Part shown: positions 38,729 through 55,732 of the stretch, piece after piece
Layout: each line of letters starts with the position of its first letter
Position numbering within the stretch: position 1 is the stretch's first letter
NCBI GenBank assembly: GCA_037445635.1
Contig: JBBIKC010000001.1
Coordinates: forward strand, 211,595 to 275,594
Direction of reading: 5' to 3'
Source of the DNA: Chloroflexota bacterium
GTDB taxonomy: Bacteria; Chloroflexota; Anaerolineae; Anaerolineales; Villigracilaceae
DNA length: 64,000 bases
Translations under genes and position numbers: made by a program
Notes under the pieces: generated by a model
Told to the model about the DNA's origin: nothing
What the model saw: only the letters and a program-made list of their open reading frames with translations
Database searches by the model: none

Positions 38729-38736
38729 GTCACCAT

Positions 38737-38769
38737 AAACCCTAAAGGTCTTCGAGACCTTTAGGGTTT
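38737..38769 (+). terminator. palindromic repeat acting as a probable terminator (family AAACCCTAAAGGTCT..AGACCTTTAGGGTTT)
   Basis: 15-bp arms with a 3-nt loop, followed by ATTTAAC. A near-identical copy lies inside hsdR at 50626-50660. Confidence 0.6.
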
Positions 38770-38786
38770 ATTTAACAGGAACCCGC

Positions 38787-46602: not shown

Positions 46603-46695
46603 CCCTCCCCAAATACGACAGGCAAGTTTAGGCGCCAATCAAAATGTAAATGTCGTATTTGGGGAGGGTGTCCGAAGGACGGGTGGGGCGGGGTC
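46603..46695. repeat. long inverted repeat plus G-rich tail at the left edge of the R-M block
   Basis: 18-bp perfect arms CCCTCCCCAAATACGACA / TGTCGTATTTGGGGAGGG separated by 30 nt. The tail GGGTGTCCGAAGGACGGGTGGGGCGGGGT closely matches 54612-54640. Confidence 0.8.
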
Positions 46696-46796
46696 TGCAA
46701 CGAAAAGGTATTGCACGGAGAGGGGGTTTTCGGGTATGCTTGGAAAATCAGTTGGAAGGTTGAAGGTTCAAGGTTGGAAAGTTGGGAACAAGGAAC

Positions 46797-48410
46797 ATGC
46801 CTCCAAAGAAAACGGCAAAAGCCAAAACAAAGAACGGAAACAACGGCGCGGCGCTTGGCATCGAAGCGGAGTTGTGGCAGGCGGCGGATAAACTGCGCGG
46901 GCATCTCGACGCGGCGGATTACAAGTCCGTGGTGTTGGGGTTGATTTTCCTGAAGTATGTCTCCGATATGTTCGAGCAGGTGCGGGCGCGGGTGGAGGCG
47001 GAAGGGCTGGACGATCCGGAGGATAGAGATGTCTATTTGGCGGAACGCGTCTTCTGGGTCCCGAAAGAGGCGAGATGGAAAATCCTGCAGGATAACGCCA
47101 AGCAGGAGTCCATCGGCAATTTGATTGACCAGGCGATGGAAGCCATCGAGCGGGATAATCCCTCGCTGCGGGGGATGCTGCCGAATAATTACGGGCGCGC
47201 CGCGCTGGATAAGCGTCGGCTCGGGGATTTGGTGGACCTCGTCAGCAACAAGATCAACTTCGCAGACGAGGAGAGCCGCAAGCAGGATACGCTCGGACGG
47301 GTGTACGAATATTTCCTGTCGCAGTTTGCCAGCCAGGAGGGACGCAAGGGCGGGGAGTTCTATACGCCGCGCTCGGTCGTGCGCGTGCTGGTGGAGATGC
47401 TCGCGCCGTATAAGGGACGCGTCTTCGATCCGTGCTGTGGAAGCGGCGGGATGTTCGTGCAGAGCGAGAAGTTCGTGGAGGCGCACGGCGGGAAGATCGG
47501 CGATATTTCGATTTACGGACAGGAATCCAATCCCAACACGTTCAAACTGGCGAAGATGAATCTTGCCATCCGCGGCATCGAAGGGGACCTGGGCAAACAG
47601 CCCGCGGACTCGTTCCACAACGACCAGCATCCCGACCTGAAGGCGGATTACATCCTTGCCAACCCGCCGTTCAACATGAGCGATTGGGGCGGCGAGAGTT
47701 TGCGCGAGGACAAACGCTGGAAATACGGCGTTCCGCCTGTGAGCAACGCCAACTTTGCGTGGGTGCAGCATTTCATCCATCATCTTTCGCCGAACGGCAC
47801 GGCGGGATTCGTGCTGGCGAACGGGAGCATGTCGAGCAATACGTCGGGCGAGGGCGAGATTCGCAAAGCCATCATCGAAGACGATTTGGTGGATTGCATG
47901 GTCGCCCTGCCGGGGCAGTTGTTTTACAGCACGCAGATTCCGGTGTGTTTGTGGTTCCTTTCGCGGAAGAAAACCCTCACCCCTAACCCCTCTCCCACAG
48001 GGAGAGGGGGACGTGACCGACGCGGGCAGACGTTGTTCATTGACGCGCGCAAATTGGGAACGTTGACCGACCGCGTCCATCGGGATTTGACGGATGAAGA
48101 CATCGCCAAGATCGCGGGGACGTATCATGCGTGGAAAGGCGACCTCACCCCCAACCCCTCTCCTAAAAGGAGAGGGGAGTACGCAGACATTCCTGGCTTT
48201 TGCAAATCCGTCACCATCGAGGAAATCCGCGCGCAGGGATATGTGCTGACCCCAGGACGCTACGTGGGCGCGGCGGAAGTGGAAGAGGACGACGAGCCTT
48301 TCGCCGAAAAGATGGCGCGCCTGACGAAGGAGTTGGAAGCGCAGTTTGAAGAGAGTAAAAAGCTTGAAAATCTCATCAGGAAAAATCTTGGTCGGATTGA
48401 AACAAAATGA
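46797..48410 (+). CDS. hsdM: Type I restriction-modification system methyltransferase subunit
   Basis: HsdM N-terminal domain ([32 protein letters not shown]). AdoMet motif [12 protein letters not shown]. Catalytic NPPFN. Confidence 0.93.
47975..48016 (+). repeat. nested palindromic element, in-frame in hsdM (copy M1)
   Basis: CTCACCCCTAA-CCCCTCTCCC-ACA-GGGAGAGGGG-GACGTGAC, translated as [15 protein letters not shown]. Confidence 0.85.
48141..48180 (+). repeat. nested palindromic element, in-frame in hsdM (copy M2)
   Basis: GACCTCACCCCCAA-CCCCTCTCC-TAAAA-GGAGAGGGG, translated as [13 protein letters not shown]. Confidence 0.85.
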
Positions 48411-49618
48411 AAGATTCAGTTTATGGGTTAGTGAATGACAATTTAGACGTTGATACTCTGGAAAACCTTTGTGTTCCTGGAGGAATTCAAACGGGTCCTT
48501 TTGGAAGCCAATTACACCAAAAGGATTATTTACCTGTGGGTACACCCATAATCACGGTCGAGCATCTTGGTGAAAATCGTATCTTGCACCAAGATTTACC
48601 ACGTGTTTCAAACACAGACAAAGAAAGACTCTCACGATATATAATGCAAAAAGGGGATATTATTTTCAGCCGTGTAGGTTCTGTTGATCGGCGGGCTTTG
48701 GTTCGACATGAAGAAGATGGATGGCTATTCTCTGGTCGTTGTCTAAGAGTGAGACCCGACCAAACAAAAATAGATTCTGATTACTTATCTTGGTTTTTTG
48801 GGCTTGAAATATTCAGGGATTACATTCGTCGTATTGCAGTCGGTGCGACAATGCCATCTCTCAATACAGAATTACTGAGCAATGTGCCTGTGTTTTTTCC
48901 GCCCCTCCCCGAACAACGCGCCATTGCAGGGATACTCGGCGCGCTGGACGACAAGATCGAACTCAACCGCCGCATGAACCGCACGCTCGAGTCCATGGCG
49001 CGGGCGGTGTTTCGTCAGTGGTTTGTGGAGAATGAGGAGGTTGGGGAGTGGGAGGTTGGTAAATTGGGAGATGTTGCAGAAAACATGAGGCGAAGCGCTA
49101 ATGCGGATGAAATTGAACCCGAAACACATTACATCGGTTTGGAACACATGCCACGCGGAAGTATTGCGCTTTCTGAATGGGGAAATGCGAGTGAATTGGC
49201 AAGTAATAAATTCATTTTCAAAGAGGGCGAATTTCTCTTTGGAAAGTTGAGACCTTACTTTCACAAAGTCGGGATTGCACCAGTTGATGGCGTGTGTTCA
49301 ACTGACATTTTGGTGATTGTGCCAAAGAAGCCAGAATGGTATGGCTATGTTCTTGGTCACATTTCAAGTGTGGAATTAATCAACTATACCAATGCCGCTT
49401 CTACTGGAACGAAAATGCCAAGAACGAACTGGTCAGATATTGCAAATTATGATGTGGCAATTCCACCTGTGGAGAAGGCTAAAGATTACAACGAGATATT
49501 TCTACCAATGGCACAACTTATTCGAGCAAACATTCTAGAATCGCACACGCTGGCGAGTCTGCGGGATAGTCTGCTGCCGAAGTTGATGCGCGGCGAGGTG
49601 AGGGTGAATGGGTTGTAG
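48407..49618 (+). CDS. hsdS: Type I R-M specificity subunit
   Basis: Two AT-richer target-recognition domains are separated by the conserved [29 protein letters not shown] region, with a C-terminal [20 protein letters not shown] overlap with hsdM. Ends in three consecutive TAG codons. Confidence 0.9.
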
Positions 49619-49620
49619 TA

Positions 49621-49667
49621 GTAGGGACACGACAGTGTCGTGTCCCTACGCAATGTCGTGCCCCTAC
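49621..49667 (+). repeat. REP-like hairpin plus half-site immediately upstream of the RAYT gene
   Basis: Perfect 13-bp stem GTAGGGACACGAC-AGT-GTCGTGTCCCTAC (49621-49649), then half-site GTCGTGCCCCTAC (49655-49667). Confidence 0.85.
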
Positions 49668-49693
49668 GCGCCGTGCACACACCCAAACGAGGA

Positions 49694-50227
49694 ATGATGA
49701 AATTCGACCCGCAAAAACACCACCGCCGTTCCATCCGATTGAAGGGATACGATTACACCCAGGCAGGCGCGTATTTCATCACGATTGTCACCTATCAACG
49801 TGAGCCCCTGTTTGGTGAAATCGTGAACGGCGGGATGCAATTATCACCGATGGGTCAGATCGCCGAGGAACATTGGCGCGCCATACCCGAACATTTCCCA
49901 AATGTGGAATTGGGCGCGTATGTGGTCATGCCGAATCATGTGCATGGGATAATCATAATCAATGATGGTAGGGGCACGATATATCGTGCCCCTACGGAAC
50001 AATTTCAAAAACCTGTAACAGGGTCAATACCAACCATCATTCGCACGTACAAGGCATCCGTCACCCGCCGCATCCAAAAAGAATTGAACGAAACCGCCGT
50101 CTGGCAGCGCAACTATTACGAACACATCATCCGTAACGACGAAGAACACAACCGCATCCATTTGTACATCGAATCAAACATTGACAATTGGGTCAACGAC
50201 GAAGAAAATCCTGTAAGTGTGAAATGA
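49694..50227 (+). CDS. HUH/Y1 transposase-like protein (IS200-like, REP-associated tyrosine transposase type)
   Basis: Contains [12 protein letters not shown], the HUH motif in [12 protein letters not shown] and the catalytic Tyr context [11 protein letters not shown]. About 177 aa. Start at ATG 49694 after GAGGA. Its stop overlaps the hsdR ATG. Confidence 0.82.
49968..49995. repeat. REP-like perfect palindrome inside the RAYT coding sequence
   Basis: GTAGGGGCACGATATATCGTGCCCCTAC (28 bp, fully self-complementary), translated in-frame as [10 protein letters not shown]. Confidence 0.9.
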
Positions 50228-53200
50228 TAAAATTCACCGAATCCACCATCGAGCAAGCCGCCATAAACTGGCTCAAAGAACTGGGCTACGACTACGCCTT
50301 CGGTCCTGAGATCGCGTTCGATGGTGAACGCCCCGAACGCGCAGATTATCAGGAACCGCTCCTGCCTGGTCGTCTGCGGGACGCGCTCACACGCCTCAAC
50401 CCCGACCTTCCTCCTACCGCGCGCGAAGAAGCCTTTCGCCAACTGACGCGTCTCGGCAAGCCCTCGCTCTTGCTCAACAACCACGCCTTTCATCATCTGC
50501 TGGTCAACGGTATTGAAGTGGAATATAAGAAGGACGGACGCATGGTCAGCGGGCGGGCGGTTGTGGTGGATTTCGATAACCCCGATAACAACGACTGGCT
50601 GGTCGTCAATCAATATACTGTCACTGAAACCCTAAAGGTCTCCGAGACCTTTAGGGTTTCCAACAGGCGCCCCGACGTGGTGGTCTTCCTCAACGGTCTG
50701 CCGCTGGCGGTCATCGAACTCAAGAACGCCGCCGATGAAAAAGCGACCATCTGGTCGGCGTTCAATCAACTGCAAACCTACAAGCGCGACATCCCCGCCC
50801 TGTTCCACTACAACGAACTGCTCATTATCTCCGACGGCGTGAACGCCCGCATCGGCTCGCTCACCGCCAGCAAGGAATGGTTCCTGCCGTGGAAGACGAT
50901 TGAAGGCGAGACTCAAGCCCCCGCGTCGCTGAGTCAACTCGAAGTCCTGCTGCGAGGCGTGTTCGAGAAACGCCGCTTCCTCGACCTCATCCGCTACTTC
51001 ATCGTCTTCGAGCAGGAACGCGGCGCGCCCACCGTCAAAAAAATTGCGGGCTATCACCAATTCCACGCGGTCAATTACGCGGTGGCTGAAACCATCCGTG
51101 CATCGCATGTAGGACAAATTTCCAATTTGTCCATTGCCGAACTCAAAGGCGTGTACCGCGCCCAACCCATGAAAGGCGGCGAAACGGGCGACCGCCGCAT
51201 CGGCGTGATATGGCACACGCAGGGTTCGGGCAAAAGCCTGACGATGGCGTTTTATGCGGGGCGGCTGGTCCTTCATCCCGCCATGCAAAACCCCACCATC
51301 ATCGTCATCACCGACCGCAACGACCTCGACGACCAACTCTTCGGCACGTTCTCGCGCTGTTCCGAAATCCTGCGTCAAACGCCCGAACAGGCGACGAGCC
51401 GCGAAGACCTGCGGGAAAAACTTAAGGGGCGCATCGCGGGCGGCGTGTTCTTTACCACCATTCAAAAATTCCTTCCCCCCTCTCCCTTTGGGAGAGGGGC
51501 TGAGGGTGAGGGTCTCCCCTCTCCTTCCAGGAGAGGGGATGGAGGTGAGGTCCTCTCCGATCGCCACAACATCATCGTCATTGCGGATGAAGCGCACCGC
51601 AGTCAATACGACTTCATAGACGGCTACGCCCGAGCCATGCGCGATGCCCTTCCCAACGCCTCTTTCATCGGGTTTACTGGCACGCCCATCGAACAGGCGG
51701 ACGCCAACACCCGAGCCGTGTTCGGCGATTACATCAGCGTCTATGACATTCAGCAGGCGGTCGAAGACGGCGCGACGGTCAAAATCTATTACGAAGGTCG
51801 GCTCGCCAAACTGGAACTGGACGAAAAAGAGAAGCCGAAGATTGATCCTGAATTCGACGAGGTCACCGAAGGCGAAGAACTCGAAAAGAAGGAAAAACTC
51901 AAGAGCAAGTGGGCGGCGCTCGAAGCCGTGGTGGGGACCGAAAAGCGCGTGGGCTTGATTGCCAAAGACATCGTTGAGCATTTCGAGAAGCGCCTCGAAG
52001 CCCTGGACGGCAAGGCGATGGTCGTGTGCATGTCCCGCCGCATCTGCGTTGACCTATACAACGCCATCGTCAAACTCCGTCCCGATTGGCATTCAGAGGA
52101 TGACAAGCAGGGTGTCATCAAAATCGTGATGACGGGCAGCGCCTCTGACCCAACAGACTGGCAGGGACACATCCGCACCAAGAAAGCCCGTGAGGATTTA
52201 GCCCTGCGATTCAAAGACCCCGCTGACCCGTTCAAGATCGTCATCGTCCGCGACATGTGGCTGACGGGGTTCGATGTCCCGCCGCTGCACACCATGTACA
52301 TTGACAAGCCCATGCAGGGACACGGTCTCATGCAGGCGATTGCAAGAGTCAATCGGGTGTACCCCAACAAAGAGGGCGGTTTGATTGTGGACTATCTGGG
52401 TCTCGCGTATCACTTGCAGAAAGCCCTTGCGACCTACACCGAAGCGGGGCATCCCGCCGAAATCCCCGACCAGGAGCAGGCGGTTAATGAGTTGCTCAAA
52501 CGTTATGAGATTTGCAAAGGCTTATTACACGGTTTCGACTGGTCGAAATATTTCACAGGGACAGCGCAGGAAAGACTCAACGCGATTCCGCAGGCGATGG
52601 AACACATCCTCCAATTGCCAGACGGCAGAAAACGCTTTCTGGACGCCGTCCGCAGCATGTCGCTTGCCTTTGCGCTGGCGGTCCCTGATGAACGCGCCAT
52701 CGCCATCCGCGACGACGTGGGATTCTTTCAGGCAGTGCGCGCCGCTTTCATCAAGCATACGGTGGAGGGCGGAAAATCGGAAGAGGATTACGAACAGGCG
52801 ATTCGGCAAATCCTATCTCGTGCGGTCTCAGCAGGAGATCAAGTCATTGATATATTCGCCGCCGCGGGCTTGAAGAAACCCGAAATCTCCATTCTTTCGG
52901 ATGAATTTCTGACGGAGATGCGCGGGATGCCGCAAAAGAACCTTGCGATAGAACTGCTCCGCAAACTGCTCAACGACGAACTCAAATCGCGGATGAAGAA
53001 GAATGTGGTGCAGTCGCGCTCCTTCACCGAAATGCTCGAACGCACCATCCGCGCCTACCAAAACCGCACGCTTGAATCGGCGGAAGTCATTGCCGAACTC
53101 ATCAAACTCGCCGAAGAAATGCGAGAGGCACAGAAGCGCGGCGAAAAACTCAACCTGACGGAAGATGAGATTGCCTTCTACGACGCGCTCGAAGTCAACG

Positions 53201-53439
53201 ACAGCGCGGTGAAGGTATTGGGCGATGACACGCTCAAAGCCATCGCCCGCGAACTCGTGGAAACCGTTCGCAACAACGTTACGATTGACTGGACAGTACG
53301 CACATCTGTCCGCGCAAACTTGCGGCGCATGGTCAAGCGCATCCTGCGCAGGCATGGCTATCCGCCCGATAAACAGGAGAAAGCCACTCAAACTGTGCTG
53401 GAGCAGGCTGAGGTCATTGCGCGGGATTGGGCGGGATGA
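50224..53439 (+). CDS. hsdR: Type I R-M restriction/helicase subunit
   Basis: N-terminus [22 protein letters not shown]. Nuclease motif RRPD...VIELK. Helicase motifs [12 protein letters not shown] ([10 protein letters not shown]), GFTGTP and QAIARVNR. 1071 aa. Confidence 0.93.
50626..50660. repeat. palindromic element in-frame in the hsdR nuclease domain
   Basis: GAAACCCTAAAGGTCT-CCG-AGACCTTTAGGGTTTC, translated as [12 protein letters not shown] immediately before RRPD. Near-identical to the terminator-like copy at 38737-38769. Confidence 0.88.
51470..51552 (+). repeat. two tandem nested palindromic elements in-frame in hsdR
   Basis: CCCCTCTCCC-TTT-GGGAGAGGGG, then CTGAGGGTGAGGGT, then CCCCTCTCC-TTCCA-GGAGAGGGG, then ATGGAGGTGAGGTC. 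Translated as [26 protein letters not shown], between TTIQKF and the DEAH box. Confidence 0.88.
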
Positions 53440-53488: not shown

Positions 53489-54958
53489 ATGAACCTCGCC
53501 CGCGCGCTACGCGTCCTTCCCCAATTGCTCCCTTCGCGTACTTCGCCCCTTCGCGGTGAAGCAATCGCCCTCGTCGGCGCGGGCGGCAAGACCACTGCCC
53601 TCTTCCAACTCGCATGGCAATTCCAATCGCAAATCGAAAATCATCAATCGTCAATCGTTACCACCACCACCCACCTCGGCGCATGGCAGGTTGCACAGGC
53701 CGACCATCACCTCATCGTCACCGAAGACACTCCCCTGCCCGAACTCGACACACTTGAAGGCGTTATCCTCGTCACGGGCGCATTGGACGGCGACCGCTTC
53801 CCCTCCCCGCCGCGCCAGACCCTCGACCATCTGCGTGACCACTGCGCGGCGCGCGGCCTGTCCCTGCTCATCGAAGCCGACGGCGCGCGCGGACGTCCCC
53901 TCAAAGCGCCCGCCGCGCACGAGCCTGCCATCCCAGATTTTGTGGATACGGTCATCGTGGTCGCTGGCTTGAGTGGACTGGGAAAACCGCTGACCGACGA
54001 CTTCGTCCATCGCCCGCATCGCTTCTCGACCTTGAGCGGGCTGCCGCTTAACCAGCCGGTCACACCCGAGGCATTGACCCGCGTCCTGACTCACCCCGAT
54101 GGCGGACTCAAAAACATCCCGCCCGGCGCGCGCCGCGTGACCCTGCTCAACCAGGCCGACACACCCGAATTACAATCCATCGGCGGCAGGATGGCGAAGT
54201 CCCTGCTAAATGAATTCGATTCTGTCATTGTCTGCGCCCTTCAACCCTTCGACACAGCTCAGGGCAAGCCTTCCAACTTTCAAACTTTCGAACTGACAGC
54301 AGGCATCATCCTCGCCGCGGGCGCGTCCGAACGTTTTGGCCAGCCCAAGCAACTGCTCGACTGGCGCGGCCAGCCCTTCGTACGCGCTGTTGCACAGACT
54401 GCGCTGAACGCGGGACTCTCGCCCGTGATCGTCGTCACCGGCGCGTATGCAGACCAGGTCGAGGCCGCGCTCCGCGATCTGCCCGTGACCATCGTCCGCA
54501 ACGAGGGCTGGCAGGAAGGCCAGGCCTCTTCGATCCGCGCGGGGATAAGATCCCTCACCCTGCCCCTCCCCGTCCCTCCCATCCCCTCTCCCAGTGGGAG
54601 AGGGGATGGGAGGGTGCCCGAAGGGCGGGTGGGGAGGGGTGAGGTCGGTTCCGCCCTCTTCCTCCTCGCCGACCAGCCGCACATCCCCGTCAATGTGATT
54701 CAAGCGCTGACGGCACATCACAGCCGCGAGTTGTATCCCATCCTCGCGCCGCTGGTGATGATGGAACAGCGCGCCAACCCCGTGCTCTTCGACCGAGTCA
54801 CATTCCCCGATCTGCTCGCGCTGAGAGGCGATGTCGGCGGCCGCGCCCTCTTCTCGAAATATCCCGTCGAATACCTGCCCTGGCACGATGATCGTCTCCT
54901 GCTCGACGTGGACAAACCCGAAGATTATCAACGGCTGGTGGAAGATGAGACACTCTAA
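53489..54958 (+). CDS. YqeC-like P-loop accessory protein fused to a MocA-like molybdenum cofactor cytidylyltransferase domain
   Basis: N-terminal AIALVGAGGKTTALFQLA...SSIVTTTTHLG (YqeC family pattern). C-terminal half AGIILAAGASERFGQPKQLL...VIVVTG...LLADQP (MobA/MocA NTP-transferase). Confidence 0.78.
   Translation: MNLARALRVLPQLLPSRTSPLRGEAIALVGAGGKTTALFQLAWQFQSQIENHQSSIVTTTTHLGAWQVAQADHHLIVTEDTPLPELDTLEGVILVTGALDGDRFPSPPRQTLDHLRDHCAARGLSLLIEADGARGRPLKAPAAHEPAIPDFVDTVIVVAGLSGLGKPLTDDFVHRPHRFSTLSGLPLNQPVTPEALTRVLTHPDGGLKNIPPGARRVTLLNQADTPELQSIGGRMAKSLLNEFDSVIVCALQPFDTAQGKPSNFQTFELTAGIILAAGASERFGQPKQLLDWRGQPFVRAVAQTALNAGLSPVIVVTGAYADQVEAALRDLPVTIVRNEGWQEGQASSIRAGIRSLTLPLPVPPIPSPSGRGDGRVPEGRVGRGEVGSALFLLADQPHIPVNVIQALTAHHSRELYPILAPLVMMEQRANPVLFDRVTFPDLLALRGDVGGRALFSKYPVEYLPWHDDRLLLDVDKPEDYQRLVEDETL
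54551..54646 (+). repeat. long nested palindromic element in-frame in the MocA domain
   Basis: CCTCACCC..CCCTCCCAT-CCCCTCTCCC-AGT-GGGAGAGGGG-ATGGGAGGG..GGGGTGAGGTC, translated as LTLPLPVPPIPSPSGRGDGRVPEGRVGRGEV. Confidence 0.88.
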
Positions 54959-55105: not shown

Positions 55106-55732
55106 ATGATTACCGCCGTCGTACTCGCCGCAGGCGAATCCAAACGCATGGGTCAGCCCAAGATGCTCCTGCCCTGGGGCGGAAGCACCGTGCTTGGTCA
55201 CGTCCTCACGGTGCTTCAAGCCGCCGAAGTGGACGACATCCTGGTCGTCACCGGCGGCGCGCGGGAGCAGGTGGAGGCCGTCGCCCGCGAACACAACGCG
55301 CGGACCGTCTTCAATGCAGATTACGCGCGGGGCGAGATGCTATCTTCCATTCAAATGGGTCTTCGCCTACTAATATCTCCCCTCTCCCCTTCAGGGAGAG
55401 GGGTCGGGGGTGAGGGTCAGGGTGAGGTCGACGCGGCCCTCCTCGTCCTCGGCGACCAGCCCCAGGTCCAGGAAGGAAGCGTGCGCGCTGTCCTCGCTGC
55501 GTATCGCAGGAGTCAATCCAATCTCATCGTCCCATCCTACCAAATGCGGCGCGGACATCCATGGCTGGCAGCGCGCCCGTTGTGGGATGAAATCCTGCAA
55601 ATGCAATTCCCTCAGACGCCGCGCGATTTTTTGAACAGGCACGCGGCCGAGATCGAATATGTCAACCTGGATACATCTACCATCCTCGCCGACCTCGACA
55701 CTCCCGAAGACTACTTGAAATCGCGGCTATAG
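55106..55732 (+). CDS. MocA-like molybdenum cofactor cytidylyltransferase (second copy)
   Basis: Contains ITAVVLAAGESKRMGQPKMLLPW, ILVVTGG and LVLGDQP. Start at ATG 55106. Confidence 0.8.
   Translation: MITAVVLAAGESKRMGQPKMLLPWGGSTVLGHVLTVLQAAEVDDILVVTGGAREQVEAVAREHNARTVFNADYARGEMLSSIQMGLRLLISPLSPSGRGVGGEGQGEVDAALLVLGDQPQVQEGSVRAVLAAYRRSQSNLIVPSYQMRRGHPWLAARPLWDEILQMQFPQTPRDFLNRHAAEIEYVNLDTSTILADLDTPEDYLKSRL
55377..55429 (+). repeat. nested palindromic element in-frame in the second MocA gene
   Basis: CCCCTCTCCC-CTTCA-GGGAGAGGGG-TCGGGGGTGAGGGTCAGGGTGAGGTC, translated as SPLSPSGRGVGGEGQGEV. It sits at the position homologous to the insert in the upstream MocA domain. Confidence 0.88.

Follow-up and report, generated by a model that had tools for sequence, protein, structure and literature searches.

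The 64,000-nt window analysed here (C1:211595-275594 of a 3.36-Mb, 71-contig assembly of a Chloroflexota bacterium) carries a type I restriction-modification (R-M) operon in which a gene for 176 amino acids, accompanied by short perfect palindromes, lies between hsdS and hsdR. We read this gene as intact, under selection and belonging to TnpA_REP subclass 2.4, that is, as a REP-associated tyrosine transposase (RAYT) of group 4 and a putative single-stranded DNA (ssDNA) nuclease-ligase of the HUH/Y1 type, and we read three GTAGGG...CCCTAC elements as probable copies of its cognate 'double-foot' repetitive extragenic palindrome (REP): a full hairpin upstream, a duplicated 3' arm and a hairpin within the gene itself. 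For this reading as a whole we estimate a probability of roughly 0.75. The in-gene palindrome is conserved as DNA and not as the peptide that it encodes, and it sits in a loop that is tolerant of insertions and predicted to be disordered.

The Pfam model Y1_Tnp matches the protein with 26.2 bits (cutoff 23), and a profile of 18 homologues, compared with solved structures, had a sole match, the Escherichia coli TnpA_REP (4ER8). The same structure was the top Foldseek match of an AlphaFold2 model with a mean predicted local distance difference test score (pLDDT) of 79.6, followed by the IS608 and ISDra2 transposases. The HUH motif is N81-H82-V83-H84 (H82-V-H84 at 49937-49945), and both histidines are invariant in the homologue alignment, as is the WQ motif W137-Q138, which aligns to the W94-Q95 region of 4ER8; the catalytic Tyr158 is encoded at 50165-50167. 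Homology places the start at ATG 49697 (MKFDP...) and not at the upstream GTG of the longest open reading frame (ORF); an alternative ATG at 49694 would give 177 amino acids. Subclass 2.4 (Quentin, Siguier, Chandler & Fichant 2018, BMC Genomics 19:475, PMC6006769) corresponds to RAYT group 4 (Bertels, Gallie & Rainey 2017, PMC5581495). The passages of PMC6006769 on this subclass list the motifs NH[IFV]H (HuH), WQ and YIxNNP, double-foot REPs with 5' GT[AG]G and 3' C[TC]AC, and an insertion between beta-3 (HuH) and alpha-C whose length and sequence vary; REPs lying in frame within tnpA_REP, between HuH and Y, are called there 'a remarkable and unique feature'. Low repeat copy number and a patchy, multi-phylum distribution are noted in passages of both papers, and low 16-mer counts for group 4 in PMC5581495. 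The window's gene has every trait listed in these passages save the proline of the Y motif; the proposed subclass assignment rests on the motifs, the loop insertion and the REP features. The hairpin carried inside the gene, which had first looked like an oddity of this locus, is another example of a published subfamily trait, and the core finding is thus not new.

The initial annotation had described an hsdS gene ending in three TAG codons that run into a perfect hairpin, a half-site 5 nt beyond it, and a perfect 28-nt palindrome in the RAYT shortly past the HUH motif. All of these were recovered. The stem of 13 bp with an AGT loop noted then is the same object as the 14-nt arms with a 1-nt centre given in Table 1, the half-site is GTCGTGCCCCTAC, and the 28-nt palindrome is in frame. 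That the hairpins are REP-like, as had also been suggested, is supported by their 5' GTAG foot and by the best fold match of the gene, which is the E. coli enzyme bound to its REP. The 3' end of hsdS reads ...GGG TTG TAG TAG TAG, its stop codon sitting in a (GTA)3 run that continues into the REP foot, so that the threefold TAG is a small GTA/TAG expansion of that foot. The in-gene 28-mer is read as xGT AGG ... CCT ACx and encodes a 10-residue peptide (residues 92-101) that begins 8 residues past H82-V-H84. Five copies of the 12-mer GTAGGGRCACGA are present in the window where 0.34 would be expected, a count reached in none of 100 shuffles, so the hairpins are not a product of chance. Folded as ssDNA, they have energies of -15 to -16.5 kcal/mol and z-scores of -5 to -7, the upstream hairpin scoring -5. 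In the minimum-free-energy structure the GTCGTGCCCCTAC copy can pair with the left arm, giving an alternative, longer hairpin. A doubled foot upstream of the RAYT is also present at one homologous locus, L047 (GTAGTAGGGGC...GCCCCTACTAC). No GTAGGG-type half-site was found 3' of 49995 within the window. The earlier statement that no REP lies on the downstream side thus holds for the GTAG family; hsdR itself does contain three in-frame palindromes, of two other families.

A homologue search yielded at least 8000 matches, and the alignment used here comprises the best 120 of these at least 8000 (121 sequences); in addition, the DNA of 80 homologous loci from many phyla was fetched, and the motifs could be placed in 75. 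After the HUH motif the alignment has a hypervariable block, in which the peptides differ, the length varies greatly and some tandem expansions are seen. A double-foot hairpin occupies this same loop in 48 of the 75 loci (33 of 28 nt, 8 of 29 nt) and in 44 of 80 genes of a separate class-wide sample described below, while in 6 of the 75 the in-gene hairpin is absent and the loop is short. The left foot stands in phase 0 (V-G-A...) in 23 loci, in phase 1 (x-R-G...) in 25, and in the phase that would create a stop codon in none. Identical 28-mers are read in two frames among the homologues, an alternative reading being, for example, VGARYIVPL. The 28-mer of the window recurs with 28/28 identity in the RAYT genes of four loci (L001, L002, L018, L048), where the rest of the ORF has 45-64% nucleotide identity, and in two of these four genomes it is also found elsewhere; its frame and peptide are the same as in the window in L001, L002 and L018, and its frame is the other one in L048. 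Another 28-mer is likewise read in a second frame, in five loci. Among 18 distinct 28-mers, 9 of the 14 stem pairs show changes on both sides, the number of compensatory cells is 57, whereas shuffles give 15.6 and sliding the partner gives no more than 8, and only 2 of 252 cells are G-U; all cells (100%) are paired, a percentage inflated by the choice of hairpins with perfect stems of at least 10 bp for the tally, which does not affect the frame or conservation results. Taken together, the reading in two frames, the covariation and the 28/28 identity show that it is the DNA palindrome, and not the peptide, that is conserved.

It had been envisaged that the segment might prove to be conserved protein sequence with no palindromic constraint on its DNA, in which case the 10-residue peptide would be a functional element and the palindrome a by-product of its codons. 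The recurrence of the decapeptide in many of the closest homologues would agree with this, but the two-frame result refutes it: the same letters are translated differently in L048 and, for the other 28-mer, in five loci. Moreover, other homologues have unrelated peptides at this place, all of them translations of different perfect palindromes, and the segment is predicted to be disordered and is missing from some homologues. The constraint clearly acts on the DNA, and we attach virtually no weight to the peptide explanation. As to the loop, the structural model has a single internal stretch of low confidence (residues 93-104, pLDDT <50), between the strand at 82-89 and the helix at 112-131, and this is where the REP peptide lies. 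Of the explanations offered in the initial annotation (self-targeting, autoregulation at the DNA or RNA level, or an insertion-tolerant loop), the last is the best supported, by this low pLDDT and by the homologues that have no insert.

If the protein acts as its counterparts from E. coli, Stenotrophomonas maltophilia and Marinomonas do in vitro, it would bind a folded ssDNA hairpin, read its GTAG foot, and cleave and rejoin the DNA beside the foot. Such an enzyme may favour the DNA nearest to its own gene and would then seed, refresh or expand REP copies beside and inside the RAYT, the expected outcome being a low-copy, local REP set and not a genome-wide family. The loop between the HUH strand and alpha-C would accept any encoded peptide, only the frame in which the TAG of the foot becomes a stop being forbidden, and only copies in frame within this tolerant loop would survive; there the element is kept as a perfect Watson-Crick palindrome matching the REPs that flank the same gene. 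We read the module as a whole as a long-term resident of the type I R-M operon, filling the slot between the hsdS stop, provided by the REP foot, and the hsdR start (ATGA).

The REP copies could also have been selected for another task. Differential expression of genes within an operon is a classical role of REPs, and the in-gene and upstream hairpins might form a cis-regulatory element, in ssDNA or mRNA and possibly bound by the RAYT, which throttles the RAYT and, through the ATGA overlap, hsdR relative to hsdM and hsdS. Most homologues have an in-gene hairpin, it is conserved far more than the surrounding codons, the RNA fold of 49600-49720 is stable (z-score -3.7), and the hairpins lie between methylase and restriction genes, in the same slot, in three genomes; RAYTs of this subclass are, moreover, repeatedly embedded in hsd operons and always co-oriented with them. 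However, approximately 30-45% of the homologues have no clear in-gene hairpin and yet retain intact ORFs, the place of the palindrome in the loop ranges between 3 and 28 residues past the HUH block, and the intergenic hairpin is not followed by a T-run. The near-absence of G-U pairs favours pairing at the DNA level over pairing at the RNA level and, together with the intact homologues that have no insert, argues against an RNA-level requirement. We therefore regard a selected cis-regulatory element as unlikely.

Several points, besides the selection of perfect stems mentioned above, count against the interpretation of the locus as a subclass 2.4 RAYT with its REPs in a tolerant loop. The NCBIfam model NF047646 (REP_Tyr_transpos) matches the protein with 64.9 bits (E = 7e-18), which is under its equivalog cutoff of 80; the RAYT is, as far as this comparison goes, related to the proteins behind the model and no equivalog of them. 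The Y motif here is Y158-I-E-S-N162-I, in which Y, I and N are conserved and the proline of YIxNNP is replaced; a paralogue on contig C20 has YIMSNP. At the centre of the palindrome at most one base is unpaired in 41 of the 48 hairpins, and this symmetry through the centre exceeds what a hairpin needs, which leaves room for another mechanism of generation or recognition. It should be noted that a 'tolerated insertion' and a 'selected cis-element' cannot be told apart from sequence alone, and that the sequencing runs found to match the locus were DNA metagenomes only, with no RNA run among them.

The whole assembly was scanned for GTAGGG[AG]CACGA, allowing up to two mismatches, and for every GTAGGG...CCCTAC hairpin whose stem has 9 bp or more. 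The exact palindrome motif is confined to this locus, and a proliferating genome-wide REP family was rejected on this ground. The earlier worry that the palindrome might be unique to the locus is thus literally true of this genome but not beyond it, the identical 28-mer being present in RAYTs of four further genomes. Only six GTAGGG...CCCTAC hairpins were found in the assembly: two here, two at the C20 paralogue, one orphan on C31 and a short one on C8. The paralogous RAYT (C20:36161-36823, 54% identical) has a 62-nt double-foot hairpin approximately 47 nt upstream and a 61-nt in-frame hairpin in the same loop and frame, its loop being 11 residues longer, and the orphan (C31:41120-41179) resembles the hairpin upstream of that gene. 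The strict pattern GTAGGGGC-N10-14-GCCCCTAC has a single copy in this genome and 0-14 copies in 15 homologue-carrying genomes, as against 0-1 for the reversed control. Across the loci, the in-gene REP usually has the sequence of REPs that flank the same gene, 17-200 nt upstream, 0-80 nt downstream or both, and the central 12-13 nt differ from locus to locus. An upstream REP is also present at the RAYTs of relatives and at the paralogue, and many homologous loci have a downstream copy. Since this locus has no cognate REP downstream and its REP is not amplified genome-wide, the view that it is not a canonical REPtron stands.

Another 28-mer, GTAGGGGCACGGCATGCCGTGCCCCTAC, is identical in the RAYT genes of L006, L013, L016, L017, L047 and L050, which belong to Dehalococcoidia, a Deltaproteobacteria-labelled genome, Anaerolineales, Chlorobiaceae and Syntrophaceae. 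Such a distribution suggests that RAYT/REP pairs have spread horizontally or that very few stem sequences are permitted. Tandem arrays made of the REP 3' arm only, with up to five units, were observed within the gene in L082 (genome G001), in the flanks of L003, L012 and L056, and in P0031 and P0098; their periods are 15, 18 and 21 nt in genes (multiples of three) and 11, 18 and 23 nt outside them. The arrays look as if they had arisen by slippage, or by rounds of cleavage and rejoining at the CTAC foot, and the half-site in the window, 18 nt from the first 3' arm, is a one-unit example.

The Y1_Tnp fold, the HUH and tyrosine motifs and the hairpin just upstream are what one would also expect if the hairpins were the ends of an active IS200/IS605-type element and the gene an ordinary autonomous transposase that had jumped into the operon. 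Against this, the family has no hairpin downstream of the gene and there is no tnpB; the genome holds just two copies, 54% identical to each other; the Y motif is Y...N, as in class 2, and not Y...Q; and the same slot is filled in another genus, with a ratio of nonsynonymous to synonymous substitution rates (dN/dS) of 0.08 at a dS of approximately 1.1. With no right end, no identical copies and a slot conserved across genera, an IS200-like mobile element was rejected, and we consider it very improbable.

Table 1. Features of the hsd operon and its surroundings in window coordinates, followed by the nucleotide identity of successive segments to those of the related genomes G001 and G012
Feature	Position	Strand	Remarks
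hsdM (type I methylase subunit)	46782..48410	+	Pfam N6_Mtase 368 bits, HsdM_N 95 bits
Third-family palindromes in hsdM (two)	47987-48009, 48155-48177		in frame, 23 nt, unrelated to the GTAG family
hsdS (specificity subunit)	48407..49618	+	Pfam Methylase_S, two stretches
TAG TAG TAG	49616-49618, 49619-49621, 49622-49624	+	hsdS stop and two more in-frame stops
Upstream double-foot REP	49621..49649		GTAGGGACACGACA-G-TGTCGTGTCCCTAC; 14-nt arms, 1-nt centre, 100% complementary
Extra 3' arm	49655..49667		GTCGTGCCCCTAC; after 5 nt (GCAAT); 18 nt start-to-start from first 3' arm
RAYT (TnpA_REP subclass 2.4) gene	49697..50227	+	176 aa
In-gene double-foot REP	49968..49995		GTAGGGGCACGATATATCGTGCCCCTAC; perfect 28-nt palindrome, in frame
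hsdR (restriction/motor subunit)	50224..53439	+	Pfam HSDR_N, SWI2_SNF2, T1RH-like_C
Second-family palindrome in hsdR	50626..50660		GAAACCCTAAAGGTCTC-C-GAGACCTTTAGGGTTTC; 35 nt, in frame, encodes a 13-residue peptide
Third-family palindromes in hsdR (two)	51477-51499, 51516-51538		CCCCTCTCC-N4/5-GGAGAGGGG; in frame
Third-family palindromes in genes downstream of hsdR	54583-54605, 55379-55403		
hsdS 3' end			82-87% identity, window vs G001/G012
RAYT, first 94 nt			80-82% identity, window vs G001/G012
RAYT, middle	49791-49966		57-61% identity, window vs G001/G012
90 nt after the in-gene REP			40% identity, window vs G001/G012
RAYT, last 142 nt			77-80% identity, window vs G001/G012
hsdR 5' end			79-84% identity, window vs G001/G012

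Among the nearest known systems is the E. coli TnpA_REP/REPtron (4ER8; Messing et al. 2012, PMC3479197), which is the best structural match of the gene and has a GTAG-footed hairpin as substrate, as is predicted here. E. coli REPs, however, are imperfect, bulged and extragenic, number in the hundreds and occur to either side of the gene, whereas the palindromes here are perfect, have feet at both ends, are very few, and one of them is inside the gene; the protein identity is approximately 21%. The E. coli enzyme is described, in passages of Corneloup et al. 2021 (PMC8266576), as the product of a single-copy domesticated gene that co-evolves with its REP. Low REP counts, as found here, agree with the low 16-mer counts for group 4 in the corresponding passages of PMC5581495, while the two-frame reading and the count of covarying pairs are not in the passages of PMC6006769 on subclass 2.4. 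GTAG and CGTC REPs lying in frame in protein-coding genes, often genes of DNA metabolism and with the same site reused in orthologues, are reported in passages of Di Nocera, De Gregorio & Rocco 2013 (PMC3733652); these passages list REPs in host genes, and none of them treats a REP within the RAYT as a family trait. Repeated co-localisation with one fast-diversifying class of genes is also seen for the TnpA_REP linked to prochlorosins (lanthipeptides) in picocyanobacteria (Laurenceau et al., bioRxiv 10.1101/2020.03.09.984088), where a causal role of the association was proposed and later withdrawn by the authors. The prochlorosin case differs in having lanthipeptide precursors as partners, no operon-internal slot and no start/stop overlap.

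In the operon of the window hsdM and hsdS overlap by 4 nt, and the TGA stop of the RAYT overlaps the ATG of hsdR (ATGA at 50224-50227). It follows, presumably, that hsdR is translationally coupled to the RAYT and that the latter is transcribed with the operon. The hsdR gene is 82-85% identical to those of G001 (same genus), G012 (same family, another genus) and G011. In G001 and G012 a RAYT occupies the same slot: hsdS ends there in ...GGG TTG TAG, the TAG being part of the GTAG foot of a REP, and the RAYT stop again overlaps the hsdR ATG. These RAYTs are only 57% identical to that of the window, have a REP of the type GTAGGGGC[GA]GGTCTC... and, on the RAYT tree, belong to another major clade. 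Among all loci they are the best match to the 3' end of the window's RAYT and as good as any at its 5' end, and rank among the worst in the middle (Table 1). The window's RAYT is therefore a mosaic whose centre, comprising the HUH strands, the REP and alpha-C, comes from another sub-lineage. The in-gene REP as the recombination breakpoint was not supported, the divergent tract (approximately 49791-50085) having the REP in its middle, away from the edges. The RAYTs of G001 and G012 differ, at the low dN/dS given above, by a dN of 0.091, equal to that of hsdR; between the window and G001 dN is 0.325 for the RAYT and 0.090 for hsdR. By these values the RAYT is kept by selection as a stable member of the operon, with at least one swap.

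Palindromes of other families are also present in the operon (Table 1). The second family has the consensus A[AG]ACCCTAAAGGTCT-N3-AGACCTTTAGGGT[CT]T and 13 copies in the genome, among them an intergenic one at 38734-38770 of the window. At the codon position of the palindrome at 50626-50660, the hsdR genes of G001 and G012 carry a GTAG-type REP, GTAGGGGCAATTCATGAAT[CT]GCCCCTAC, and that of G011 has the family-2 peptide; different palindromes have landed repeatedly in this loop, which lies in the N-terminal part of HsdR. The third family, CCCCTCTCCC-N3-GGGAGAGGGG with a one-sided GGGGTGAGGG tail, numbers 44 copies in the genome by a strict and 83 by a relaxed pattern, often in frame in genes and encoding peptides such as SPSGRGDG...; nowhere in the genome are its copies packed more densely than in the 10 kb around the operon, with six against approximately 0.25 expected. 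At 46603-46668, approximately 115 nt 5' of the hsdM start, a perfect 18-nt inverted repeat (CCCTCCCCAAATACGACA ... TGTCGTATTTGGGGAGGG, 30 nt apart) was also seen.

The R-M habitat of the gene is less expected than its hairpins, and it is the part of the observations that deserves follow-up. Among the 80 similarity-ranked loci, 12 have hsdM, hsdS or hsdR within 4 kb, and in 4 an hsdR (50-63% identical) lies downstream of the RAYT, at no more than 80 nt in three of them and at approximately 260 nt in L065. In order to avoid query bias, 301 genomes of the same class were searched, 136 of which have the family, and a class-wide sample of 80 genes from 57 genomes was drawn with the sole criterion of at least 5 kb of contig to the left, 5 kb being fetched on each side. 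Type I R-M genes lie within 5 kb in 18 of the 80, and in 15 of the 18 these include hsdR or two or more different hsd genes. The 46 matching hsd segments all lie on the strand of the RAYT, and the commonest order is hsdM-hsdS-RAYT-hsdR. As the two type I loci of the present genome with 5-kb margins make up approximately 1% of its sequence, the enrichment is about twentyfold. A single origin of the R-M-linked RAYTs was rejected: the 12 linked rows need 11 changes on the tree, no fewer than shuffled labels, a scatter that reflects repeated capture, swapping or loss and not one clade. No defence-system model of PADLOC matches the RAYT protein. A full-text literature search found nothing linking RAYT or TnpA_REP with type I R-M; the text of PMC6006769 contains neither 'restriction' nor 'hsd', and in PMC5581495 'restriction' occurs only in a title in the reference list.

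The fixed slot between hsdS and hsdR, the coupling to hsdR, purifying selection as strong as on hsdR, and sub-lineages that are exchangeable within the slot could mean that subclass 2.4 RAYT/REP modules are selected working parts of type I R-M operons and not passengers, a suggestion that we make tentatively and with the odds against it. Such modules may set the ratio of methylase to restriction enzyme through their hairpins, promote exchange of hsdS-RAYT segments, or seed palindromes into hsd genes. Whatever the case, as regards the in-gene hairpin the locus adds one more example, and a cleaner case for conservation at the DNA level. Approximately one fifth of these genes in one bacterial class adjoin type I R-M genes, co-oriented with them and often placed exactly between hsdS and hsdR. 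We know of no function for group 4 RAYTs, and a defined operon partner offers a testable setting in which to look for one, in restriction efficiency, in the balance of methylase and restriction gene expression, and in hsdS exchange.

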